64,000 bases of DNA from an uncultured Bacilli bacterium. Lineage in GTDB: Bacteria; Bacillota_I; Bacilli_A; RF39; UBA660. Below the pieces are notes generated by a model, which saw only the letters and a list, made by a program, of their open reading frames with translations, searched no databases and was not told the origin of the DNA. The translations under genes and the position numbers were made by a program. Below, piece after piece: positions 1 to 34,469 of this stretch (its first letter is position 1; every line of letters begins with the position of its first letter). The stretch covers positions 4,845 to 68,844 of the forward strand of contig CANRCR010000002.1 of NCBI GenBank assembly GCA_947629165.1. Reading direction: 5' to 3'.

Positions 1-597
1 TCGGGATTACTAAAAACATTAAACGATCCGAATAAACCACACTACACGACCTTTGGCGAAGACATGACCGTCACGATGAATCCTAACTTCCGTATGATAA
101 GTGCAGGAAACACGAATGGCGAAGGAGAAAATGAAGAGTTTTCAGCCCGTGCGAAACTCGATGAAGCAGTTTTGGAACGTATGACACCGATTCGTTTTAC
201 ATACGATAATCAAGTCGAAAAACGCATCTTTAGAGAATATGACAGTTGGTATCAATTGTTTATCAATTTCCGGAAAGCCTGTGATTCGTGGGCCAAAGTT
301 CAAGGAAAAGACAGTGCTGCTGGAATTGGTACGACAAGAGATGCCGAAGCCATTGCCAAATATATTTCGAACAACAGTAAAAGTGTCGATGAAATAATGC
401 GTCAAAAATTTATTCAGACTAAAGATGTCGATTATTTAAGTCACTTAGAAAGAGAATTCCGTAAGTTTTACGATATTACCGGTTCGATTGGAGAATTGAA
501 AGAGCCGAGCAATCTAGCGGGAGCAAGTGAAAAATATCTCGCGAAGAAATTCATTTTAAACTGTCAAAAAGGAAGAAAACAAGAACAAAGTAGGTGA
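1..597 (+). CDS. AAA_5-type ATPase, C-terminal fragment; gene continues upstream of window. Paralog of the 28135..29922 ATPase.
   Basis: Frame 1 is open from nt 1. The translated stretch ANTNGEG...RAKLDEAVLERMTPIRFTYD aligns with ANTYGTGSD...RSALDGASLNRFVPIFIDYD in the 28135 ATPase (sensor-2-like region). Confidence 0.55.
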   Translation, partial: SGLLKTLNDPNKPHYTTFGEDMTVTMNPNFRMISAGNTNGEGENEEFSARAKLDEAVLERMTPIRFTYDNQVEKRIFREYDSWYQLFINFRKACDSWAKVQGKDSAAGIGTTRDAEAIAKYISNNSKSVDEIMRQKFIQTKDVDYLSHLEREFRKFYDITGSIGELKEPSNLAGASEKYLAKKFILNCQKGRKQEQSR

Positions 598-601
598 GAA
601 G

Positions 602-1555
602 ATGGGCAAATATCCAAATAATCATTTAACGCATGAAGATTGTATTTTTCCTCCGTATCAGATAACGGTAGGAGGTAAAATTTATCAATTGTATTTATCT
701 CGTTTTAATTCCCTTAATGCCCTTTACGAATATCTAAAAAGTGATCCTCCTACTAATCGAATGGCCTTTCATTCTTTAGCGAGTGAAACGAACGATTTTA
801 ATCATTCTGGAAAAAGTTATAGAGAAGCCGTCGAAGATTTAGTCCGTCCTTTCGATGAAGAATATCAAGAATTCTTAAGTATTCAAAAAAAATTAGGAAC
901 CGCTAAATTACAAAAGATTCATAAGTATGAAACTGTAAAAACCGTTACGGGAGGACATTTAATCATTCCGGATTATATCGCTGGAGCACCGCTTTGTTAC
1001 GAGTCGGAAGAACGCATACAAAAAGCCAAATTTGTGAAAGTAAATGCCACTTTATCGTACCACGCCGCAACCACCAAAAAACAGTTATTTAATCGCACAA
1101 TTATCATGGCAAACTTGATTCAAGCCCTCGAAAAAAGTGGATACAATGTCGATTTTAATACTTTTGAATTTAGTCGTCATAGTGATGAACTTTCTTATAC
1201 TATTATAAAAATAAAGAAACATGGTGGAAGAACGAATATGGAAGCACTTTATCAAACTTCTTGTAAAGTTGAATTTTTAAGAAGAATCCTCTTCCGTGTT
1301 TTAGAAACCTTAGATGTCGAGACCTATTGGGGAAGTACTTACGGTTCGGTCTGCTCTCAAGAATTTGTTCGAGAAGCGCTTAAGTTTGATAAAAAAGATA
1401 TCTATTTCGATCAACCTTCGAGTATGGGAATCCAAGGAAACGATTTAATAGGTGACTTTAATCGAGCTATGGAACACCTCCATTTAGATAATATTGTTGA
1501 TATGGAACGTACGCGAGACCAAATCGAAAAAAATTATAAATTATTACAAAAATAA
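602..1555 (+). CDS. Hypothetical protein, partner of the AAA_5 ATPase; paralog of 29931..30830.
   Basis: Starts 5 nt after the ATPase stop. Shares blocks with the 29931 protein: GxPxCxxSxxxxxKxxxV; ANLIQALEKSGYNVDFNTFEF versus LNLIEYLEKQGYHVNLFTYDF; and C-terminal LRRxLFR. Confidence 0.55.
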   Translation: MGKYPNNHLTHEDCIFPPYQITVGGKIYQLYLSRFNSLNALYEYLKSDPPTNRMAFHSLASETNDFNHSGKSYREAVEDLVRPFDEEYQEFLSIQKKLGTAKLQKIHKYETVKTVTGGHLIIPDYIAGAPLCYESEERIQKAKFVKVNATLSYHAATTKKQLFNRTIIMANLIQALEKSGYNVDFNTFEFSRHSDELSYTIIKIKKHGGRTNMEALYQTSCKVEFLRRILFRVLETLDVETYWGSTYGSVCSQEFVREALKFDKKDIYFDQPSSMGIQGNDLIGDFNRAMEHLHLDNIVDMERTRDQIEKNYKLLQK

Positions 1556-1556
1556 A

Positions 1557-1588
1557 ATATCCACAGCTTTTGTGGATATTTTATTTTC
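1557..1588. terminator. Bidirectional intrinsic terminator between convergent genes.
   Basis: Stem ATATCCACA, loop GCTTT, stem TGTGGATAT, flanked by A-run upstream and T-run downstream. Confidence 0.7.
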
Positions 1589-2420
1589 TTTTTTGTTTCA
1601 CTTTTTCTTCTTTTCTTTTTAGATCGATATAAGATTGAATTAAAGATGTATCATTTAAGCAATGAGAATTCACTTTTCGTATTTCTGGGTCGATATCTTC
1701 CGCTTCTTCATACTTTTCACAAAGATCATCGATTAAAAGATGATAATACTTAAAAGGAACATTTTTAGTTTGAGAACTTAATAAAAGAAAGGCCGCTAAA
1801 TTATCCTGAAAATAATGAACATGACTTTCTTCTCTTGTCTTTTTAAAAAGATGTGCTACCCGGTACATAGCATCATAATTGATACAGTAAAAGGCACCTA
1901 ATCCTGGATTTAAAGTTTTTAACATCTCAAAGTCTGATAAACCGATAAGATCATCTTGGATATATTCTCGAAAAGAGGTAATCATCGAAGTTGAAAAATC
2001 AAGGGAATGCGTATGATCAAAATGATACGGTTTTACATAATCTTGAGAGAGAAAGTTAAGTAAATCACAAATCGAATAAAGCGGATCAGTAGAGGTATTA
2101 TTTTTAACAATTTCAATAAAATGAACTAAAACAGGGGAATTTAAATCAAAATGGGCAAGCGATTTCTTTAATAATTCTTGATAAGAGGCCATATTTAAAC
2201 GGTCTATTTCTTGTCTTTTAACACAATCACTGATGGTCACTAAATCGTGTTGAGAAACGGCCAATGAAAAAATAATATTTCTTAGCGACCGATTGTACTG
2301 TGTTTGATAAACAATTTCCCGCAGGATTTTATGATACGGTTCTAAATTCCCAGGAAGTATTTCCTCGGTAGGAATTAGATAAAATAATTCCGGTAAATAT
2401 TTATTACTTAAATAATCCAT
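1581..2420 (-). CDS. Hypothetical protein (279 aa).
   Basis: Long minus-strand ORF convergent with 602..1555; no recognisable motifs. Confidence 0.5.
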   Translation of the reverse strand: MDYLSNKYLPELFYLIPTEEILPGNLEPYHKILREIVYQTQYNRSLRNIIFSLAVSQHDLVTISDCVKRQEIDRLNMASYQELLKKSLAHFDLNSPVLVHFIEIVKNNTSTDPLYSICDLLNFLSQDYVKPYHFDHTHSLDFSTSMITSFREYIQDDLIGLSDFEMLKTLNPGLGAFYCINYDAMYRVAHLFKKTREESHVHYFQDNLAAFLLLSSQTKNVPFKYYHLLIDDLCEKYEEAEDIDPEIRKVNSHCLNDTSLIQSYIDLKRKEEKVKQKRK

Positions 2421-2480
2421 AGGCGCCTCCTTTTCGTATTATTATAACACAAAAAAGATATGGTATAATATATTTAGAAA

Positions 2481-3029
2481 ATGAGGAAAAATAAAATGGA
2501 AAAAACAAAGCATCTTAATAAAAAAGAAGAACAAATTAGAAAAAAAACTTATCGTTATCTTCTTAAACAAAACACTCCTGATATCGATCAAAAAATGGCA
2601 TTAATCGATCAATTACTTCATCTAGAAAAAAGAGAACGATACCGTTATCTCTACGACTTAATTTGTGACTATTTTGATCAAGAATTTAAAGAAAAAAATA
2701 TTTGTGCTTTTTCTTGTGGTATTTGTAAAAGAAGACAAAGTATGATTGATCAAGGAACCATCAAAGATACCTATCAAAATGGCTGTTGCTACAGTTACCG
2801 CAAAAAAGAACTTTGTAAATACTATGTTGAAGGAAAAGGATGTGCTATAAAAAATATTGCCTGTAAGGTATATACCTGTCATTATTTAAGAAAAAGAGGT
2901 TATCATTACCATGTGAAAGATCTTTACTTTGCTCGTTATTTTTTTAATAAAAAACAATTTTTCTATATGGAGAACACCTTTTTTCAAGATAAAACAATCG
3001 TTCTAAACGGAATTTTAGAAAGAGAATAA
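2481..3029 (+). CDS. Cys-rich hypothetical protein, possible metal/Fe-S binding (YkgJ-like?).
   Basis: Lys-rich N-terminus; cluster CAFSCGICK...NGCCYSY...CKYY...GCAIKNIACKVYTCHY. Confidence 0.4.
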   Translation: MRKNKMEKTKHLNKKEEQIRKKTYRYLLKQNTPDIDQKMALIDQLLHLEKRERYRYLYDLICDYFDQEFKEKNICAFSCGICKRRQSMIDQGTIKDTYQNGCCYSYRKKELCKYYVEGKGCAIKNIACKVYTCHYLRKRGYHYHVKDLYFARYFFNKKQFFYMENTFFQDKTIVLNGILERE

Positions 3030-3121
3030 TTTTTTGAACGTAAATCCATTGTTGAAAAGTACTTTTTTTGATATAATAACGCTAGTAATAGATTGTAGAA
3101 AGTAGTGAAAGGAGTAGTGCT

Positions 3122-3643
3122 ATGGATAAAATAATTGGTTACCAAATTGCGCTTACTTCCCATAGTGGATTGTCGGAATCATCTACCATTGCGGAAAAGA
3201 ACCAAGCTTTACTAGATCCTACGAATCAACAAGCCATTATTGTGCAATATGAAAATGGAAAAGAAGGTTATTTTCGCTCGGTTCAAGAATTACAAAAAGC
3301 GTTAAATGATTATACCCAAGAAGATTTTGAACGTTTAAGAGAACATCAACCACTTATTTTAATAATGACCGACGAAGAGACAAAAATACTCGATCAAAAG
3401 AAAGCGATGGGAACGTTAACAGTAAATACACCTATTTTTGAAGAACTTAATACCCTTTCTCCGGCGGCTCGTGTTTTTCAAAGAATGTACGCTTTAATGA
3501 AAGAACAACTAAAGACTCCGCAACCGGTCATTATCGATTATTTAGAACCTGAAGACCAAGATTTTCCAGATTTAAAGAGAGAAGTAAGACGTTATTTTCA
3601 TCCTGGACCACCAAAAAAAGCACTCGATATAGAAGAACTATAA
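3122..3643 (+). CDS. Hypothetical protein (173 aa).
   Basis: ORF with RBS GAAAGGAG upstream, followed by hairpin terminator. Confidence 0.45.
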   Translation: MDKIIGYQIALTSHSGLSESSTIAEKNQALLDPTNQQAIIVQYENGKEGYFRSVQELQKALNDYTQEDFERLREHQPLILIMTDEETKILDQKKAMGTLTVNTPIFEELNTLSPAARVFQRMYALMKEQLKTPQPVIIDYLEPEDQDFPDLKREVRRYFHPGPPKKALDIEEL

Positions 3644-3645
3644 AA

Positions 3646-3680
3646 ACAAGTAAATATAATAAACTTGTTTTTTTAATTGC
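3646..3680 (+). terminator. Intrinsic terminator.
   Basis: AACAAGT ... ACTTGTT stem followed by TTTTTTT. Confidence 0.6.
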
Positions 3681-3915
3681 CTTTTAGTCGACATAATAAA
3701 AAGATATAGATAAAACTGCAAAGTTGAAATATTCCATCGAAAGATAATACAAGGAGATGTTCCAGATCAATTAGTAGAAAAACTAGTTTATTTATGGAGT
3801 AGTTCCCAAGAAGAAAAATAATTTTTAAAAAGGACAAGGAAGAAAGGTATCTTCCTTGTTTTGTCTATAAAAGCGTGTTAAAATAGAAGAGAATTTAGGT
3901 GCAAGGAGGGATAAA

Positions 3916-5868
3916 ATGTTTCAATTAGTATCGAAATATCAACCGAATGGCGATCAACCGAAAGCGATCGATGAATTGGTGGATGGTATTAATGAAGGAA
4001 AGAAATATCAAGTTTTACTTGGAGCGACGGGAACCGGTAAAACATTTACGATTGCAAACGTTATTCAAAGAGTCAACAAACCGACTTTGGTCCTTGCACA
4101 CAATAAAACATTAGCAGGACAACTTTATGGCGAATTAAAAGAACTATTTCCCAATAACCATGTCTGTTATTTCGTCTCTTATTACGACTATTATCAACCC
4201 GAAGCTTATGTTCCATCGACCGATACCTATATTGAAAAAGATTCTTCTATTAACGATGAAATTGATGAATTACGGCACATGGCAACATCAGCTCTACTTA
4301 CTTATGATGATGTGATTGTAGTCGCAAGTGTCTCTTGTATTTATGGTATAGGAGAAGTAGAAGAATACCGCAATAAAATGCTTACATTAACGGTAGGAGA
4401 TACCATCGACCGAAATGTGGTCTTAACAAAATTAGTCGAAATGCTATACGAGCGAAATGATTATGACTTTAAAAGAGGTAGCTTTCGTGTAAGAGGAGAC
4501 GTTTTAGAAATAATTCCTACCAACGAAAGTAGCAAAGGTCTACGAATTGAATTTTTTGGCGATGAAGTAGATCGTATCAGTGAAGTTGATACGTTAACGG
4601 GAGCTATTTTAACAAATAAAAAAACAGTGAGCATTTTTCCAGCTAGTCACTTTGTAACGAGTGATGAAAAATTAAAGGCCGCCATTAAAACTATCCGTGA
4701 AGAGTTAACAGATCGGCTTGCTTATTTTAAAGAAAATAATAAACTACTCGAAGCAGAACGATTAGAACAACGTACGAATTACGATTTAGAAATGTTAGAA
4801 GAGACGGGTTTCTGTCATGGAATTGAAAACTATTCACGACATATGGCAGGGCGAAAAGAAGGCGAGACTCCGACGACATTAATGGATTTCTTTCCGAAAG
4901 ATTTCCTAATGGTAATCGATGAATCCCATGTAACGGTTCCTCAAGTAAGAGGAATGTATAATGGCGACCGAGCTCGTAAAATGAATCTCGTCGAATATGG
5001 CTTCCGTCTTCCGAGTGCCCTTGATAATCGTCCTTTAAAGTTCGACGAGTTTGAACAAAAACAAAATCAAGTAATTTATGTTTCGGCAACTCCGGGTGAT
5101 TACGAACTTGCTTTAACGAAAGGAAAATTTACAGAACAGATTATTCGTCCGACGGGATTACTCGATCCTTTAATCGAAGTACGTCCTTCCGAAGGTCAAA
5201 TCGATGATTTAATTGGCGAGATTAAAGACCGAATCGAAAAGAATGAACGAACTTTAATTACCACTTTAACAATTCGTATGGCCGAAGAATTAACGGCTTA
5301 CTTAAAAGAATTAGATATTAAAGTAGCCTATCTTCATACCGAGGTAAAAACCCTAGAAAGATTACAAATTATTCGCGATTTACGATTGGGTAAATATGAT
5401 TGTGTTGTTGGAATTAACCTATTAAGAGAAGGAATCGATATTCCAGAAGTAAGTTTAATTGCCATCCTCGATGCGGATAAAGAAGGTTTCTTACGAAGTG
5501 GTAGAAGTCTCATTCAAACGATAGGACGTTGTGCCCGTAATGCGCATGGAAAATGTATTCTTTATGCGGATAAAATGACTGATAGTATGGATTATGCTAT
5601 TACGGAAACTAAACGTCGTCGTAGTATTCAAGAAGCCTATAACCAAGCACATGGTATTACGCCAACGACGATTACGAAAGAAATTCATGAATTAATTAGC
5701 AATGTGGATCACGGAAACGAAAAGAAGAAGAAAGAAAAAGTAAATAAACAAGATCGAGAGTTAATGATCGATCGAATTGAGCAAGAGATGCGTGCTGCAG
5801 CCAAGAATTTAGATTTTGAAAGAGCCATGGAGTTACGTGATTTACTGTTCGAATTAAAAAGTGAGTAA
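3916..5868 (+). CDS. uvrB: Excinuclease ABC subunit B.
   Basis: Walker [11 protein letters not shown], helicase motifs, C-terminal UVR domain ([16 protein letters not shown]). Confidence 0.95.
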
Positions 5869-27191: not shown

Positions 27192-28007
27192 ATGGCCTCT
27201 TTTGTAATCCATCACATCGTAGGAGAAAATTTCCTAACATTATTAGATAAAAAATTAGAAATTACTTTAAATCCTATCGAACAAAAACAATTTTTATTAG
27301 GAAACCTAGTGGTTGATTCAACACGTATCTCAAAAGAAATACCAGATAATTTAGATTCCTTTGAAAAACAACAATTAAAAAGAAAAATTGCTTTGGCAAT
27401 TCAAGAAGAAAAAATAAAGACACACTTTCGGAATCCGAACACGGTAGATCAAACGATTCAAGCACCGATTCCAAATCGATTTATTCATAAGTACTACGAT
27501 CTTTTTGATCATAATCCTGCAGTACTAGGATATCTCGTTCATCTTTATACCGATAAATACTTTTTTGATGATCTTTTTAGAGCGACCTTTGAAATGGTCG
27601 ATCGGAATAATAACCCAGTAATATACGATCGGGAGGTCGATCACATTCATATATATAAAACCGGTGAAAATCAGTCACCAAAAAAGTTTTGGAGTGACCG
27701 AGGGATGTATCGGGATTATACCCTTATGAATCATTATTTACTTGACTGCTTCCATACGAAGTTTGATGAGCAAGATCTAATGAAAGCAACTACTTACTTT
27801 CATAATCCTGGAATCGAAGAAGTAGATTTTGAAAACATTGGCCAAGTACTTCATGAAACTGCTTCCTATATACAAGAAAGCAATCAAATGAAAGATGCCA
27901 AACTCCGTATCTTTGATGAAGAAAAGATTCGATCTTTCGTTCCGACCGTATTAAGTCAATTTGTAGATTTATATCCAGATTTAATAGAGAAGACCTTAAT
28001 AAGATAA
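27192..28007 (+). CDS. Hypothetical His-rich protein, possible metal-dependent hydrolase.
   Basis: N-terminus MASFVIHHIVGE; several HxxH/D motifs; 271 aa. Confidence 0.4.
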   Translation: MASFVIHHIVGENFLTLLDKKLEITLNPIEQKQFLLGNLVVDSTRISKEIPDNLDSFEKQQLKRKIALAIQEEKIKTHFRNPNTVDQTIQAPIPNRFIHKYYDLFDHNPAVLGYLVHLYTDKYFFDDLFRATFEMVDRNNNPVIYDREVDHIHIYKTGENQSPKKFWSDRGMYRDYTLMNHYLLDCFHTKFDEQDLMKATTYFHNPGIEEVDFENIGQVLHETASYIQESNQMKDAKLRIFDEEKIRSFVPTVLSQFVDLYPDLIEKTLIR

Positions 28008-28134: not shown

Positions 28135-29922
28135 ATGAATAATACCATCGTTCGAGATTTCTTCAAAAATGCGATTGAAGAATGTAAAAAGAGTGTTATT
28201 TGTAAAATTCCTTACTCGAAGACGAATCCCATTATTGAAATTCAAGAAGAAGCTTTTTATGATTGGGAAAGTTGTGAATATGTAGTAATTCCTCCAACCG
28301 TACATAAAATTGCTCCGAATGCTTTTCATTGGGACAAGATAAAACTTATTATTTCGGAAACACCACTTCCAAAAGAATATAAAGGAATCGTGCTTCCTTA
28401 TTCCGAATACAGTCAAGCAATTTTAAATATGTTACAACAAATGGAAACAGTAGATCGTAAGATCGACATCCATAGTGAAGATTTAAATCGAAGAAGAGAA
28501 GAGATAAATAATCATATTAATGAAATACTTCAAGCCATGGCCGAAAAAGAACAAGACCTAACTGGAAAAGAACAAGATTTACAAGAATTAGTTCAAAAAT
28601 TAAATGTGGTTCTAGAACAGAGTCAAGGACTTTCGGATACGTTATTAAATCAAATTGAAAAAGAGACGAGTGATCGAATTCAAACAACTTTAAAAGTATT
28701 AGATGAGCACGATCAAAAAGTAAAGGATCAAATAAAAACCATCGAAATGACTGCTCGTCAAGGAACTGCTTCGATGGAAGAAGCTTATCACCAAGCCCAA
28801 AAAGGAATTGAACACTTAACGGATGAGACCATTCGCCGGGTTACCAAAACAATACAAGAAAAACAACGCGAAGCCAAAGAGATAAAACAAAAACTTTCCG
28901 ATATGCTCGATCAATTAAGTGTCCGTGAAGAGGAACTTACCGAAGCCGTTGTCGATCGTGCTGTAGACCGAGTTCGGGAAGAAAATCCTTATAAAAATAT
29001 CAATATATATATCAATAACGTTATTCAAGGAACGGCCCATCGTAAACTAGTTCATAAAAGTTTCGAAAGCGTTGTAAAAATTTTGGGACTTCATCTTCAT
29101 CCTTTGTTAGTAGGACCCGCTGGATGTGGTAAAAACGTTATGCTCGAACAAGCTTCGGAAGCTTTAGGACTCAAGTTCCATTACGTAAACGACGTTACCG
29201 AAGAACATAAGGTAATGGGTTTCGTAGATGCAAATGGAAAATTTCAGAAAACACAGTTCTTTCAAGCTTTCACCGAAGGTGGACTCATGATGATTGATGA
29301 AATTGATAACTCGCATCCTTCGGCATTATTAGCTATAAATGCAGCTTTAGGAACCGGTTTCAACCAATATTTAGCATTCCCGGATGGTAAACTTTATCCA
29401 TGTCATAAAGACTTCTATTGTGCGGCTGCTGCAAACACGTACGGAACGGGATCCGATATGATTTACTGTGGAAGAAGTGCTTTGGATGGAGCAAGTCTTA
29501 ACCGGTTCGTTCCTATTTTTATCGACTACGACAGAGACTTAGAAGAACACCTCGTTCGTAATACCAAGATTTTACCCCTTTACTGGCAAGTAAGATCATC
29601 GATTCAAAAAAATAAGATTCGACACGTTATTTCTACTCGTAACATCGTTAATGCTGACAAAATGATATCGAGTGATAATTTTAGTACGGGCCAAATCTTT
29701 GATATGACAATTATTCAAAGTTTAACAGACGACGATTTAAGAATCATCTTAAATGATATTGTAAAAGGACCAAGTGACCCTGTTATATCGAGTTTTATCA
29801 ACTATCTTCAAACGAACAAAGGAATTTCTTATAAGGAGTATAGCGAAAATAATTACAGTCAAGGAAGACAAAAAACATATTCTTCTGGCTATGGTTACTC
29901 TCCTTATTCGGAAGATTATTAG
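28135..29922 (+). CDS. AAA_5-family ATPase with N-terminal BspA-type LRR unit and ~200-aa coiled coil.
   Basis: Walker A LVGPAGCGKN; Walker B LMMIDEID; sensor-2-like RSALDGASLNRF. N-terminus IEIQEEAFYDWESCEYVVIPPTVHKIAPNAFH matches the LRR_5 repeat consensus. Residues ~95-290 are heptad-rich. Confidence 0.8.
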   Translation: MNNTIVRDFFKNAIEECKKSVICKIPYSKTNPIIEIQEEAFYDWESCEYVVIPPTVHKIAPNAFHWDKIKLIISETPLPKEYKGIVLPYSEYSQAILNMLQQMETVDRKIDIHSEDLNRRREEINNHINEILQAMAEKEQDLTGKEQDLQELVQKLNVVLEQSQGLSDTLLNQIEKETSDRIQTTLKVLDEHDQKVKDQIKTIEMTARQGTASMEEAYHQAQKGIEHLTDETIRRVTKTIQEKQREAKEIKQKLSDMLDQLSVREEELTEAVVDRAVDRVREENPYKNINIYINNVIQGTAHRKLVHKSFESVVKILGLHLHPLLVGPAGCGKNVMLEQASEALGLKFHYVNDVTEEHKVMGFVDANGKFQKTQFFQAFTEGGLMMIDEIDNSHPSALLAINAALGTGFNQYLAFPDGKLYPCHKDFYCAAAANTYGTGSDMIYCGRSALDGASLNRFVPIFIDYDRDLEEHLVRNTKILPLYWQVRSSIQKNKIRHVISTRNIVNADKMISSDNFSTGQIFDMTIIQSLTDDDLRIILNDIVKGPSDPVISSFINYLQTNKGISYKEYSENNYSQGRQKTYSSGYGYSPYSEDY

Positions 29923-29930
29923 GTGATATC

Positions 29931-30830
29931 ATGTATCAAGATGTAGAAAGATATCGTTACAAGGACGACTTAGTTTATGTCAAAAAATTTCAAAATTTAG
30001 ACCAATTTTTAGTAGAAGTAAGAGATAATCGTAATCTAAATCCCATCTTTCAATCGGAACAAAGTACGAACGGAGATGCTTCTTTTACCGAAACAAAGAC
30101 GTACGAAGAAGCTTGGAACTTATGTCGTTTTACCATGAACCAAGGCTTTGACCGATTTTATCAAAAGTTTTGTTCCCTCAATTATAAGATGGATTATCAA
30201 GAGAAAAAAATCGATATATTTAATGTGACCGGGTATGTTCCAAATGTACCGCGTTACTTATTAGGAATTCCTACTTGTATGCATAGTTACCGATTAGAAA
30301 AGAAAGAGGAAACCGTCAGTATTTATATGAATATGGCCTATTCTTGCTATCAAAACAAAGAACAGATTGAAAATCGTGGTATCCTAGTACTCAATTTGAT
30401 CGAATATTTAGAGAAACAAGGATATCATGTCAATCTTTTCACTTACGACTTTGGTACCTGTGACAACGAAAAAATATTGATGATTGTTCCGCTTAAAACG
30501 AAAGATGAAAAGTTAAACATTAAAAAGACGTATTTTCCACTTGTACATCCATCGTTTTTACGAAGACTTCTATTTCGAGCTCAAGAAAAAATGCCGGTAC
30601 AAAGAAAAATGTGGGCATATGGATATGGATCTCCAGTAGAATATGAGGAAGCAGTCAAGTTCTTTGATCAATATCATCGTGAATTTGATAAAGAAAAAGT
30701 CATCTATATTTCGACCCCTAACGAAATGGGAATTAAAGGACAAAACCTCGAAGAAGATTTCGACCATTTCTTAGAAACGATTAATCGAAATTATCAAAGC
30801 CATGAAAAAGCAAAACAAAAAATTAAGTAA
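29931..30830 (+). CDS. Hypothetical protein, partner of the AAA_5 ATPase; paralog of 602..1555.
   Basis: Begins 9 nt after the ATPase stop; sequence blocks shared with the 602..1555 product. Confidence 0.55.
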   Translation: MYQDVERYRYKDDLVYVKKFQNLDQFLVEVRDNRNLNPIFQSEQSTNGDASFTETKTYEEAWNLCRFTMNQGFDRFYQKFCSLNYKMDYQEKKIDIFNVTGYVPNVPRYLLGIPTCMHSYRLEKKEETVSIYMNMAYSCYQNKEQIENRGILVLNLIEYLEKQGYHVNLFTYDFGTCDNEKILMIVPLKTKDEKLNIKKTYFPLVHPSFLRRLLFRAQEKMPVQRKMWAYGYGSPVEYEEAVKFFDQYHREFDKEKVIYISTPNEMGIKGQNLEEDFDHFLETINRNYQSHEKAKQKIK

Positions 30831-30846: not shown

Positions 30847-31764
30847 ATGGAATCAGGAAATATTTGGGGTTCACTTGAAAATACTACCCCATCTGTAATG
30901 GTAGAAAATCGAAAAACACTTTCCGTTAATAACTTGCGCATCTATTTAGCGATGACTCCCACCCAAGAAATAAATAAAGATACATTCTTCGATTACTTTC
31001 GTGAAAATAGTCTAGAAAAGCCTTTAGAGGGAACCGAATACTATTTACCACACGCCCTCTTTCATTATCCGATCGAAGATGAAAAAATACTAGCCATAAT
31101 GGACTTCTTGTTTGAATATACTTCTCCCTATGTATTGACGGAAAAAACCGGAATGAACTATTTACAAAGTATTTTTACAAGACCGGAAGCGCTCGAGGAA
31201 GAAACGATTAAAACGATATTAAAACAAGCGAGCGAAGTAAAAGCAGACTTTAATCATCGCGATAACGAATGGAATACCGTCCTACACTGGGCACTAGTAG
31301 GAAATGGTTACAGTGATAGTATTGATAAATTGTATCCGTATTTTCCTAAAGATTTCTATGTCGCAACAGGACCTCATCAGAATGACTGTGCGATCAATTC
31401 GTTCAATCGGGAAGGAATTACCGTTTATGATTTAGCCAAAATTATTCTAGCTCGGGTAAGTATAACCTTCGAAAATCACGCCAATTTTGATTATTACAGC
31501 AAAGATTGGAGAAGAGTATACGAATCCTATACCGATGGTTATAAATGGGCAAGAGAACCGAATCGCCAAGGAAGATTATTAAATAGTTATTTTAGTCATA
31601 CGATCGGATATAGTCTACGGCATTTAGGAACCGATTCAATGATTTCATTTGACCGTTACCATAATAAAACATATGACATTTGTTTAAGTGATTTTGCACC
31701 CGTATTTCAAACGAGAAAATTAAAAAAGTTAGGTACTTATCACACGCCTGAAACAAAAGAATAG
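30847..31764 (+). CDS. Hypothetical protein, possibly ankyrin-repeat-like; third gene of the operon.
   Basis: ATG at 30847 preceded by RBS AAAAGGAGAA. Segment NTVLHWALVGNGYSDSIDKLY resembles an ANK repeat. Confidence 0.45.
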   Translation: MESGNIWGSLENTTPSVMVENRKTLSVNNLRIYLAMTPTQEINKDTFFDYFRENSLEKPLEGTEYYLPHALFHYPIEDEKILAIMDFLFEYTSPYVLTEKTGMNYLQSIFTRPEALEEETIKTILKQASEVKADFNHRDNEWNTVLHWALVGNGYSDSIDKLYPYFPKDFYVATGPHQNDCAINSFNREGITVYDLAKIILARVSITFENHANFDYYSKDWRRVYESYTDGYKWAREPNRQGRLLNSYFSHTIGYSLRHLGTDSMISFDRYHNKTYDICLSDFAPVFQTRKLKKLGTYHTPETKE

Positions 31765-31825: not shown

Positions 31826-31891
31826 TTCGACAGAACTTGACAAAACTAGCTAATATCCGCTGTTTCTTTTTGTATTTATTTCGTGTATAAT
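31826..31891 (+). promoter_or_regulatory. spo0A upstream region: candidate 0A box plus promoter elements.
   Basis: TTCGACA at 31826-31832 (reverse complement TGTCGAA, the Spo0A box consensus); TTGACA at 31837-31842; extended -10 TGTATAAT ending at 31891. Confidence 0.4.
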
Positions 31892-31924
31892 GATAATTGC
31901 GTGGTAGTAAGAAAGGAAGAATAT

Positions 31925-32704
31925 ATGAATAAAATAAGACTACTCATGATTGATGATAACGTCGAACTTGTAAAGATGACGGAGGAGTACTTTAAGAATC
32001 ACGCTACAATTGAAATTGCTTTATCGGCAAACAATGGCGAAGATGGACTTAAAATGATCGAAGAAAAACAAGCGGAATACGATGTGCTAGTACTCGACTT
32101 AGTAATGCCCAAAAAAGATGGAATTTCCGTATTAGAAGAAATGCGAAGAAAAGGAATTGATAAGAAAACAATTGTCTTAACCTCGTACAATGCTCCTGAA
32201 ATGATCCGTAAGGTTTCGGAATTAGGAGCCAGTTACTTTATCTTAAAACCATTTGAATTAACGGAATTTGAAAGTAAAATAATCGATTGCACCAGTGCCA
32301 AAGACTATAAACGAAAAGCAATTGATATCTATCATAACAATCTGCAAATATCGATTACGAAAATTCTCCATGAATTAGGAGTACCTTCGCATATTAAAGG
32401 ATATCAGTATATCAGGGAAGGAATCATCATCCTCTACGAACACCCAGAGATTGTAGGCGGTATTACCAAAGAACTATATCCCGATATTGCGAAAAAGTTT
32501 GATACGACCGTATCCCGTGTAGAAAGAGCAATTCGTCATGCCATCGAAGTGAGTTGGAATCGCGGTAATTGGCAATTGATGGAAGAAATCTTTGGTCACA
32601 GTGTCGATATTGATAAAGCCAAACCAACCAATTCAGAATTCGTAGTTACCGTAGCAGATAAATTAAGATTGGAATTTCATAAACAGGGCGCATTTCAAGA
32701 CTAG
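31925..32704 (+). CDS. spo0A: Sporulation master regulator Spo0A.
   Basis: Receiver domain (LLMIDDN ... [10 protein letters not shown] ... K) and Spo0A-specific C-terminal domain ([32 protein letters not shown]). ATG at 31925 with RBS AGAAAGGAAG. Confidence 0.9.
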
Positions 32705-32777
32705 CAGTAATGGTCTTTTTTGTTGGCAAAAAAAGATTTCTATGATATAGTTAAGTTAGTAGTAGGGAGGAATTGGT

Positions 32778-33077
32778 ATGGAACCAAAGAAAAGAATATG
32801 TTATGACCGAAAAGTAGCAAATATAAAATCACAACTAAATAATTTAAAACAGGAGGTAATCGATGCCTTGTATTTAATTGATTCGACGAAAGAGGAAAAA
32901 GATACCGTAGAATTGATGCAAAGCGATGATTACGAACTATTATGTGATCTTTATTTTCGTCTTCCTGGAACGAGACCAACTCCATCACAAGAAGTAAAAG
33001 AAGAAAAAAAGGAAGAAGTAGCCAAACAAAAGGTATTAGGGTTTGGGAAACCGAAAACGATTCTACCGAAGGAATAA
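32778..33077 (+). CDS. Small hypothetical protein (99 aa).
   Basis: Strong RBS GGGAGGAATTGGT before ATG; preferred over the overlapping minus-strand ORF 32740..33126, which lacks an RBS. Confidence 0.4.
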   Translation: MEPKKRICYDRKVANIKSQLNNLKQEVIDALYLIDSTKEEKDTVELMQSDDYELLCDLYFRLPGTRPTPSQEVKEEKKEEVAKQKVLGFGKPKTILPKE

Positions 33078-33194
33078 TCCTTCTTTTTTTTGTCGAAAAA
33101 AGGGAAGTTTTATAACTTTTGGACAATATATTGACTATTATTTTTCGTTGTATTATACTTTAACTATAGTAAAATTGTTGGGAGGTAACGATTT

Positions 33195-34469
33195 ATGGAA
33201 CGAAAAATAATGAATGACTTACTTCGCTGGAAACGAGATGATAACCGTCGCCCATTACTCCTTTATGGAAATAAACAAGTAGGGAAAACCTATACGGTGC
33301 TTGAGTTTGGAGCGAAGGAATATAAATCTTGTGCTTACTTTAACTGTGAAAATAATTTAGAGCTACTAGAAATGCTCAAAAAAGAAAGTAGTATCGATAA
33401 AATAATTTTAAAACTATCAATGCTATCGGGAGAACAGATATTAAAACAAGATAGTCTTTTAGTGTTCGATAACGTCGAAGATATCGAAGTAGTTCGCATG
33501 GTAAAGAGAATCGGTAAAGAACAAAATGCCTATCATGTAATTATGATTACGTCTTCCAAAGATAATCTCAACCAGTTCAAGTCGGAAGAACTTCAATTTA
33601 AATACATGTTTGCCCTCGATTTTGAAGAATACTTAAAAGCCATTAAACAGGAGCAACTCATCGATTTTATTAAAGATTCTTACAAAAATAATAAACCGAT
33701 GCCATTCCATAATATAGCGCTCGATTATTATGAGAACTATATGATGACGGGAGGTTTTCCTGAAGCCGTGGCCACTTCACTTACGAGTGATCAACCACAA
33801 GCTTTAGCTATGGTTCACCAAAAGATTCTAGATTTATACCCAAAAGAGTTTATGCGCCAAGAACAACTAATCGATATGACCAGAGCGTTAGAAGTATTTC
33901 GAATAGTACCTTATCAACTAGTGAAACCCAATAAAAAATTTCAATACGGATTAATGCGTATGGGAAGTCGTGCCAAAGAATACTTTCAAGCCATTGACTT
34001 TTTAAGTAATAATAGTTACCTAAATCGTTGTTATAAGATTACGGAAGTAAAAGCGCCATTGAGTAAAAATAAAGATCCTGAGAGTTTTAAACTCTATGCA
34101 CCGGATACGGGACTTCTTTTTCACATGTTACATTTAAGTAAAATTCGTTACCTTGGAGATAATCGCTTTAAATATATTATCTATGAAAACGCACTTGCGA
34201 GCAGTATTTTAGCGGGAGGCTACAGCTTATATTATTATCAATCGGAAGGGAAAGCCGAAATTTCCTTTGTAGTACAAACTCGTGCTGGAAAAATTATTCC
34301 GATCGAGCTAGTTAATAAAAATGTTGCAAAGGCAAAATCACTAACCTTATTTATGAATAAATTCGATATTCACGAAGCAATTCGTGTTACCGAAGATAAT
34401 TTTAGTATGAAAAAAGGAGTAAAATATATTCCAATTTATGCAACGTTCTGTTTAAAAGACAATTTGTAG
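33195..34469 (+). CDS. AAA_14/DUF4143-family ATPase (COG1373-like).
   Basis: Walker A LLLYGNKQVGKTY near N-terminus; ~420 aa with a C-terminal DUF4143-like region. Confidence 0.65.
   Translation: MERKIMNDLLRWKRDDNRRPLLLYGNKQVGKTYTVLEFGAKEYKSCAYFNCENNLELLEMLKKESSIDKIILKLSMLSGEQILKQDSLLVFDNVEDIEVVRMVKRIGKEQNAYHVIMITSSKDNLNQFKSEELQFKYMFALDFEEYLKAIKQEQLIDFIKDSYKNNKPMPFHNIALDYYENYMMTGGFPEAVATSLTSDQPQALAMVHQKILDLYPKEFMRQEQLIDMTRALEVFRIVPYQLVKPNKKFQYGLMRMGSRAKEYFQAIDFLSNNSYLNRCYKITEVKAPLSKNKDPESFKLYAPDTGLLFHMLHLSKIRYLGDNRFKYIIYENALASSILAGGYSLYYYQSEGKAEISFVVQTRAGKIIPIELVNKNVAKAKSLTLFMNKFDIHEAIRVTEDNFSMKKGVKYIPIYATFCLKDNL

Follow-up and report, generated by a model that had tools for sequence, protein, structure and literature searches.

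Two paralogous ATPase–DUF7192 gene pairs in an uncultured gut Bacilli bacterium: a probable MoxR-type motor with a VWA-like adaptor

Within a 64,000-nucleotide stretch of DNA from an uncultured Bacilli bacterium (the whole stretch is called the window here), a gene for an AAA_5-family ATPase is followed directly by a gene for a DUF7192 protein on two occasions. The first pair, ATPase-1 (A1) and partner-1 (P1), lies at the window edge and is termed copy 1; the second, ATPase-2 (A2) and partner-2 (P2), lies about 27 kb away at 28135..30830 and is termed copy 2. The locus raises the question of what such a pair does, and why two of them should be kept in one genome. We propose that each pair probably consists of a MoxR-type (CbbQ/NorQ-like) AAA+ motor and a von Willebrand factor A (VWA)-like adaptor without the metal ion-dependent adhesion site known as MIDAS, working like NorQ–NorD, with a co-conserved neighbour as the likeliest client or co-factor. 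MoxR/VWA pairs are known as a kind of system; the MIDAS-less DUF7192 variant would be new.

An initial annotation of the window had described the two pairs as diverged paralogues, and BLASTP recovered the resemblance in both genes. ATPase-1 enters the window from upstream (1..597, forward strand): frame 1 is open from base 1 for 198 codons and closes with TGA at 595–597, and the length of 177 amino acids (aa) given in that annotation applies only if counted from an internal ATG at 64. This fragment aligns with residues 412–529 of ATPase-2 at 25% identity over 126 aa (E=1e-8), the block R..LD.A.L.R..PI...YD included. Partner-1, a 317-aa DUF7192 protein (602..1555, forward strand), aligns with its paralogue partner-2, of 299 aa and the same family (29931..30830, forward strand), at 31% identity over 281 aa (E=1e-31), with LIQALEKSGYNVDFNTFEF in the one facing LIEYLEKQGYHVNLFTYDF in the other. 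The similarity extends past these short blocks, as the full-length ATPase-1 of a sister contig (L002, described below) matches ATPase-2 at 26% identity over 243 aa (E=2e-23), all of it confined to the AAA+ module. The same annotation had asked for a check whether both ATPases have a leucine-rich repeat plus coiled-coil N-terminus. That idea was rejected: hhalign finds no match between the N-terminal 460 residues of ATPase-1 and the N-terminus of ATPase-2, and LRR_5 in ATPase-2 scores 17.5 bits, below the cut-off of 27.7.

The age of the two copies can be judged from their partners. P1, P2, the partner of a third bacterial type introduced below (P3) and the phage partners are all ~25–34% identical to one another, against 41–68% within a clade, and the duplication by this measure therefore long predates these species. 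Partner-2 has its own orthologue series, from 96% falling to ~40% identity. These comparisons identify the two copies as ancient paralogues of different clades and not as a recent duplicate; presumably they serve different clients and are not redundant. Because amino-acid identities of 26–31% imply saturated synonymous sites, the ratio of non-synonymous to synonymous substitution rates (dN/dS) between the pairs is not meaningful, and strain-to-strain comparisons (pN/pS) were used instead. Between the window and L002, the C-terminus of ATPase-1 shows 12 synonymous and 0 non-synonymous differences, and partner-1 shows 7 and 3 (pN/pS 0.11). Between the window and L039, a 96% strain, pN/pS is 0.080 for ATPase-2 and 0.099 for partner-2, with 0.077 for the gene upstream of copy 2 (U2) and 0.091 for the gene downstream (G3). 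Both loci are maintained by purifying selection.

A scan of genome contigs for relatives, with the single peptide pattern EFLRRILFR, yielded only 25 loci, the genome of the window itself not among them, and gene order was surveyed by BLASTP of six-frame open reading frames (ORFs) over ~40 fetched loci. Three bacterial architectures were found, all in metagenome-assembled genomes (MAGs) of uncultured gut 'Bacilli bacterium', Candidatus Coprovivens or Erysipelotrichales type. Type I, to which copy 1 belongs, has the order (Y621)-X1-A1-P1: A1-P1 is present in 21/21 loci and X1-A1-P1 in the 19/19 with enough upstream sequence on the contig; roughly half of the loci also have Y621 (~620 aa). Type II, to which copy 2 belongs, has the order (U2)-A2-P2-(G3); A2 and P2 are adjacent in all copy-2-type loci examined, accompanied by U2 and/or G3 in L034, L035, L037 and L039. 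Type III, with the order TelA(PF05816)-X'-A3-P3, occurs in five loci (L008:3446-8891, L029, L030, L031 and L033), and its members measure ~407 aa (X'), ~720 aa (the AAA_5 ATPase) and ~296 aa (the DUF7192 protein).

Types I and III are sisters: by hhalign, X1 is homologous to X' (probability 97.9, E=4e-13) and the N-terminus of ATPase-1 to that of A3 (probability 99.8). Neither the A2 N-terminus nor U2 nor G3 matches X1/X' or the A1/A3 N-termini by this method. Pfam recognizes no families in X1, X', Y621 or other neighbours, and Y621 shows no relationship to TelA by BLASTP or hhalign. In one MAG (L009:517-7951), a divergent phage-like A2/P2-like pair lies directly upstream of X1-A1-P1, placing two modules in tandem.

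The pairing is also found in phages. The family matches 305 phage records, and the ATPase and DUF7192 genes are neighbours in 4/4 phage lineages checked: Staphylococcus phage GH15 of the genus Kayvirus (ORF047/ORF046), Clostridium phage CS266P3 (genes 43/44, in swapped order), mycobacteriophage Jobypre (134/132, with one small gene between) and Listeria phage P70 (gp51/gp52). ATPase-2 is 32% identical to GH15 ORF047 over 333 aa (E=6e-57), and lies nearer to the phage ATPases (183–187 bits to GH15) than to ATPase-1 (92 bits). A literature search found nothing specific on the function of the Kayvirus pair.

What kind of ATPase is involved was addressed through families and folds. AAA_5 (gathering cut-off 22 bits) is matched by ATPase-2 (28135..29922, forward strand; 595 aa with the AAA+ module at ~290–560) with 36.9 bits and by the full-length ATPase-1 of L002 with 28.6 bits; the 198-aa window fragment alone has no Pfam match. 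Both copies match phrog_249 (E=1e-12 for the fragment, E=1.6e-53 for ATPase-2), whose label is 'porphyrin biosynthesis', meaning CobS-like. In PDB, a profile built from the ATPase family matches the midasin AAA ring (E=8e-12), CobS (5e-4) and CbbQ (1e-3), and PDB sequence searches with ATPase-2 alone and with G3 found nothing. In the AlphaFold2 (AF2) model of ATPase-2, residues 1–93 are poorly predicted, residues 89–281 form long helices and the AAA+ core is good, with a predicted local distance difference test (pLDDT) score of 70–88. The best Foldseek match of this core is CbbQ2 (6l1q_A; E=1.7e-12, template-modelling (TM) score TMt 0.71, root mean square deviation (rmsd) 4.0 over 261 columns); TMt is 0.70–0.76 to the NorQ chains of 9qh6/9qhd and 0.75–0.77 to cso-CbbQ. 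ATPase-1 has no match to the C-terminal lid of CbbQ/NirQ/NorQ (PF08406), and ATPase-2 scores 19.1 bits, below the cut-off of 20.6.

The Walker A motif separates the two copies. Walker A of ATPase-2 reads GPAGCGKN (residues 327–334, window 29113–29136), with Asn in place of the Ser/Thr that normally coordinates Mg2+ at the last position, and its Walker B reads MMIDEID. GKN is common to all copy-2-type orthologues, the L009 pair and the ATPases of phages GH15 and CS266P3; ATPase-1, the TelA-type ATPases and the mycobacteriophage and Listeria phage homologues have GKS or GKT instead. The bacterial ATPases carry helical or coiled-coil N-terminal extensions of 290–470 residues that are missing in NorQ, CbbQ and the phage versions. 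The profile of one such region (L002:1482-2900) matches apolipoprotein A-IV, apolipoprotein E, apolipophorin-III and keratin in PDB, with E down to 2e-5, which probably reflects coiled-coil or amphipathic-helix composition rather than homology; the apolipoprotein-type matches are of note given the link of the sister type to TelA (membrane stress).

DUF7192 (PF23822, cut-off 27 bits) is matched by partner-1 with 67 bits and by partner-2 with 111 bits, and both match phrog_1909, of unknown function (E=7e-25 and E=2e-39, respectively). The family is large, with 9264 clusters at 50% identity (E<=1e-3) or 6363 at E<=1e-10, and a literature search returned no paper mentioning it. The AF2 model of partner-1, built with 58 homologues, is confident (pLDDT 84.4, predicted TM score (pTM) 0.79). 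It shows an N-terminal subdomain of ~140 aa followed, from about residue 143, by a VWA-like part with the order beta1-alpha1-beta2-beta3-alpha2/3-beta4-alpha4-beta5-alpha5-alpha6, which fits VWA topology. The top three Foldseek matches in PDB are all chain G, the NorD VWA domain, of NorQ–NorD cryo-electron microscopy entries 9qh6, 9qhd and 9qhe (E=2e-6 to 1e-4, probability 1.00), with weaker matches to vWF-A1, TRAP, factor B and Ku. In a viral structure library the model finds DUF7192 proteins (TM 0.5–0.77) and then phage CobT-like/VWA proteins (E=3e-7 to 1e-4, probability 1.00). Across 52 diverse members the invariant residues, in partner-1 numbering, are S61, R227, R228, E235, Y247 and G248, most of them within a motif (S/E)FLRRxLFR...E...GYG, and the Arg-rich helix may be the client surface.

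By their models, the two gene products accordingly map onto the two subunits of one solved machine: ATPase-2 onto NorQ and partner-1 onto the NorD VWA domain. The proposal in the initial annotation that the two genes form a functional unit is backed by conserved adjacency, by purifying selection on both genes and by models that match both NorQ–NorD subunits. Beyond these observations of homology, gene order, selection and fold, we draw the working of the pair from its relatives. By analogy with NorQ–NorD, CbbQ–CbbO and CobS–CobT, the ATPase would form a hexameric ring that hydrolyses ATP. One partner molecule would dock on this ring, as NorD does through a finger that enters the central pore, and ATP hydrolysis would be transmitted by way of the adaptor, so that one particular client protein is remodelled or assembled. 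For copy 1 the likeliest client or co-factor would be the product of the co-conserved, abutting X1 gene; for copy 2 the client may be U2 and/or G3.

Several observations weigh against this proposal. The TM score of partner-1 to the NorD VWA domain is only 0.25–0.30 with an rmsd of ~10 Å, which leaves the Foldseek 3Di E-value and probability as the basis of the fold match. The partners match none of the VWA models in Pfam, the partner profile finds no PDB sequence, and no DxSxS...T...D MIDAS set is conserved in the alignment of 52 DUF7192 members; after putative beta1, partner-1 reads N-A-T-L-S-Y and partner-2 N-M-A-Y-S-C. The model of ATPase-2 has low confidence overall (pLDDT 59.5) and is good only in the AAA+ core, and the fold of ATPase-1 is assigned through homology, the modelled structure being that of ATPase-2. 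Docking of the partner on the ring is carried over from NorQ–NorD, the clients named above are guesses from gene order, and X1, U2 and G3 have no domain recognizable by Pfam. In view of the low TM score to NorD, the VWA-like fold of partner-1 is treated as probable, not proven.

One further point concerns copy 1 itself. L001, a 2994-bp ENA contig found by exact-protein look-up of the 317-aa product, is identical to the window at 2488 of 2489 bp (1 mismatch). Compared with L002, its ATPase-1 has an in-frame 141-bp deletion between GAAT microhomologies (L001:~317-326 versus L002:2899-3039), removing 47 residues that include Walker A (GPSGCGKS). The 47-residue segment is kept in all 11 homologues and in strain L002. 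The junction lies ~180 nt upstream of window base 1, i.e. beyond the window, and coverage of L001 is only 1.66x; the deletion may be a real strain variant or an artefact. If real, copy 1 of this strain may encode a P-loop-less, ATP-binding-deficient ATPase.

The missing MIDAS can be reconciled with docking. In NorQ–NorD the finger of the NorD VWA domain that enters the NorQ pore is the ring contact (PMC13036017), and MIDAS mutants of NorD still bind NorQ and fail on the client, so the MIDAS is needed to bind the client and not to bind NorQ (PMC9976466). A MIDAS-less adaptor could therefore still dock, binding its client differently.

The rival that survives best is compatible with this molecular mechanism, the sole difference being the biological role that it assigns. 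Here the ATPase/VWA-like pair would be the sensor-switch of an anti-phage or envelope-stress (Ter-like) conflict system and would control X1, U2 or G3 as its effector, perhaps at the membrane with TelA. TelA and the vWA protein TerF are proposed sub-membrane Ter components that block phage or xenobiotic entry, and MoxR–vWA pairs occur in predicted conflict systems (PMC7824862). Besides these precedents, the sister architecture strictly includes TelA in all five loci, the modules occur in variable contexts with several paralogous types per genome, and the rare GKN Walker A common to ATPase-2 and the Kayvirus and Clostridium phage ATPases speaks for phage–host exchange. Against this role, PADLOC-DB 2.0 gives only coiled-coil-type matches for ATPase-2 (LmuB and ZorA, E>=1.5e-5, in the helical N-terminus) and nothing for either partner, the ATPase-1 fragment, U2, G3 or X-type neighbours, and NCBIfam was uninformative for all components. 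X1, U2 and G3 show no detectable effector domain, be it nuclease, protease, TIR, pore or another. Unlike typical defence islands, copy 2 occupies a site between tpiA and spo0A that is conserved across species, where the L034 partner is still 68% identical. On balance we consider a conflict-system role unlikely.

A wider reading, which we offer as a tentative speculation, would join the motor–adaptor proposal to such a role. DUF7192 would be an unrecognized, MIDAS-less branch of VWA adaptors that always accompanies a CbbQ/NorQ-like motor; phages would carry the minimal pair, and at least three domestications in uncultured gut Bacilli would have given rise to distinct X1-, TelA/X'- and U2/G3-linked operons, acting as a new type of envelope-associated stress or anti-phage switch and not as a classical cofactor-insertion chaperone.

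It is very improbable that the two copies are decaying prophage remnants without host function. The abundance of the family in phages (the records above, with matches to phrog_249 and phrog_1909), the nearness of ATPase-2 to phage ATPases and the P-loop deletion in L001 would fit such an origin. Yet every gene of the two loci has a pN/pS of 0–0.11, the operon structure is conserved among orthologues of 41–68% identity, and no phage structural, integrase or lysis genes adjoin either copy, the neighbours being uvrB, tpiA and spo0A; purifying selection and housekeeping neighbours together argue against prophage debris. The long, lineage-specific N-terminal extensions of the bacterial ATPases, lacking in the phage versions, speak against it too.

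We give equally little credence to an McrBC-like system, in which DUF7192 would be a McrC-type, pore-inserting partner with a PD-(D/E)XK-like nuclease that cleaves nucleic acid. The rings of McrB resemble NorQ/CbbQ in structure, and McrC, too, enters the pore (PMC9976466); the partner model has weak Foldseek matches to PD-(D/E)XK and cap-snatching endonucleases (E=0.03–0.1). The probability of these matches is at most 0.13, where VWA proteins reach 1.00, the family invariants S, R, R, E, Y and G include no D...(D/E)xK set, and the ATPase has AAA_5 rather than McrB GTPase signatures. A CobS/CobT-type cobaltochelatase motor, suggested by the phrog_249 label, the CobS match of the ATPase profile (E=5e-4) and the matches of the partner model to phage 'CobT-like' proteins, is hardly credible, since the partner is only ~300 aa with neither a MIDAS nor a CobT-specific sequence match, no CobN-like gene lies in any of the ~40 neighbourhoods (neighbourhoods only, not whole genomes), CbbQ/NorQ, and not CobS, give the best structural matches, the gut Bacilli that serve as hosts have small genomes and the PHROG label is an inherited annotation.

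The layout of copy 1 can be read from L002, an 8503-bp contig to which a cluster representative of 99% identity led; it matches window 1..5284 at 98.7% identity and keeps the same downstream gene order, ending with uvrB. It holds the full locus: X1 (439 aa) ends one base before the start of a 777-aa ATPase-1 (Walker A GPSGCGKS, Walker B LGLDEFD), which is followed by the DUF7192 gene. Walker A, Walker B and an N-terminal helical/coiled-coil region of ~470 aa lie upstream of the window; the part inside it runs from just past Walker B to the end and comprises sensor-1 (SAGNT), a block with Arg that reads SARAKLDEAVLERM and, at the C-terminus, the helical lid. At the junction with partner-1 (592..604, forward strand), read from the sequence, a Shine–Dalgarno-like AGGTGA overlaps the TGA stop of ATPase-1, and the partner-1 ATG stands at 602; this 4-nt gap suggests co-translation of both proteins from one mRNA. 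A terminator-like hairpin (1549..1587, forward strand), with an 18-pair stem followed by a T-run, overlaps the partner-1 stop codon between the convergent genes 602..1555 (forward) and 1581..2420 (reverse), and suggests the 3' end of the operon; it is a single match, where shuffled sequences give 1.7 such matches. Window positions 1..1555 are best explained as the distal two-thirds of a chromosomal operon with three genes, X1–ATPase-1–partner-1.

Copy 1 was correctly said to stand without the third gene of copy 2, as no homologue of the 320-aa reading from 30802 adjoins it; what it has instead is X1 (~440 aa), a conserved gene of its own that lies upstream, outside the window, and abuts ATPase-1 translationally. 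X1 was considered as a counterpart of the third copy-2 gene and rejected, being unrelated to U2 and G3 by BLASTP and hhalign. Two further genes next to copy 1, a 182-aa Cys-rich protein with several CxxC/CC clusters (2481-3029, forward strand) and the convergent 279-aa protein (1581-2420, reverse strand), have no family match, are seen only in two near-identical strains and lie outside the conserved module.

In copy 2 the ATPase is preceded by U2 (27192..28007, forward strand), a 271-aa protein with no Pfam match and no PDB sequence match, whose homologues (37–42% identity) precede the copy-2-type pair in L034 and L037. The pair is followed by G3 (30847..31764, forward strand). The start of G3 is probably the ATG at 30847 (305 aa), by comparison with L039, whose orthologue is called from the equivalent ATG; the alternative 320-aa reading from 30802 overlaps the end of partner-2 by 29 nt. 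The 'ankyrin' label attached to G3 has as its sole basis an Ank_4 match with E=0.039 and 14.8 bits, against a cut-off of 22.7. G3 homologues follow the copy-2-type pair in L034, L035 and L036. None follows the pair in L037 or L009, which makes G3 a variable accessory gene, and copy 1 has none either. The L034 locus has two tandem copies (L034:7909-9741), 41% and 38% identical to the window G3. Downstream of copy 2 (31883-34469), synteny across species extends over spo0A, a 99-aa ORF and an AAA_14/DUF4143 ATPase. The spo0A assignment comes from Response_reg and Spo0A_C in the orthologous L034 and L039 genes, and the host is a Spo0A-bearing member of Bacilli, though the scaffold of one relative is only ~1.0 Mb.

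The second paralogous copy by itself is a solid but modest finding. Its wider use lies in a mechanistic handle for the large DUF7192 family, whose members would serve as adaptor subunits to an AAA+ motor of NorQ/CbbQ type, and in a correction of the inherited 'porphyrin biosynthesis / CobS' label on phage ATPases. Kayvirus, a therapeutic-phage genus, has the same ATPase and DUF7192 module, and the three bacterial operon types supply candidate clients in X1/X', U2 and G3.

Among known systems, the Ter/TelA group (TelA, with the vWA proteins TerF/TerY) shares the theme of TelA with a VWA-like protein, in that the type III relatives of copy 1 are always preceded by TelA; it differs in that TerB, TerC and TerD genes are missing here, and neither window copy has an adjoining TelA. 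To our knowledge, Ter systems do not include an AAA_5 ATPase. Acidianus two-tailed virus and jumbo phages likewise encode a MoxR ATPase and a vWA co-chaperone, for which a role in virion (tail) assembly has been proposed or shown (PMC7824862); their vWA partners are canonical, some of them fused to a metallopeptidase, and the likeness is drawn from the published description of these pairs. The phage phrog_249 and phrog_1909/PF23822 pairs, such as GH15 ORF047/ORF046, belong to the same families with the same gene order and adjacency, and ORF047 shares the GKN Walker A of ATPase-2; phage ATPases are ~340–400 aa without the long N-terminal extension, and their loci lack X1, U2, G3 and TelA. CbbQ–CbbO, the Rubisco activase (PDB 6l1q, 5c3c), provides in CbbQ2 the best match of the ATPase-2 core, uses a VWA adaptor as well and has the lid that ATPase-2 matches weakly, below cut-off; CbbO is large and MIDAS-containing, and no Rubisco or carboxysome genes lie near the window pairs. 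NorQ–NorD, a MoxR AAA+/VWA chaperone by which FeB is inserted into nitric oxide reductase (PDB 9qh6, 9qhd), differs in its parts: NorD, at ~70 kDa, consists of an N-terminal domain, a linker and a VWA domain with a MIDAS, against ~35 kDa and no MIDAS in DUF7192, and NorQ is a bare AAA+ module (~30 kDa) against window ATPases with 290–470-aa N-terminal extensions, with no nor genes present. What it shares is the plan of two adjacent genes, with the ATPase-2 core resembling NorQ and the DUF7192 model resembling the NorD VWA domain of the very same structures.

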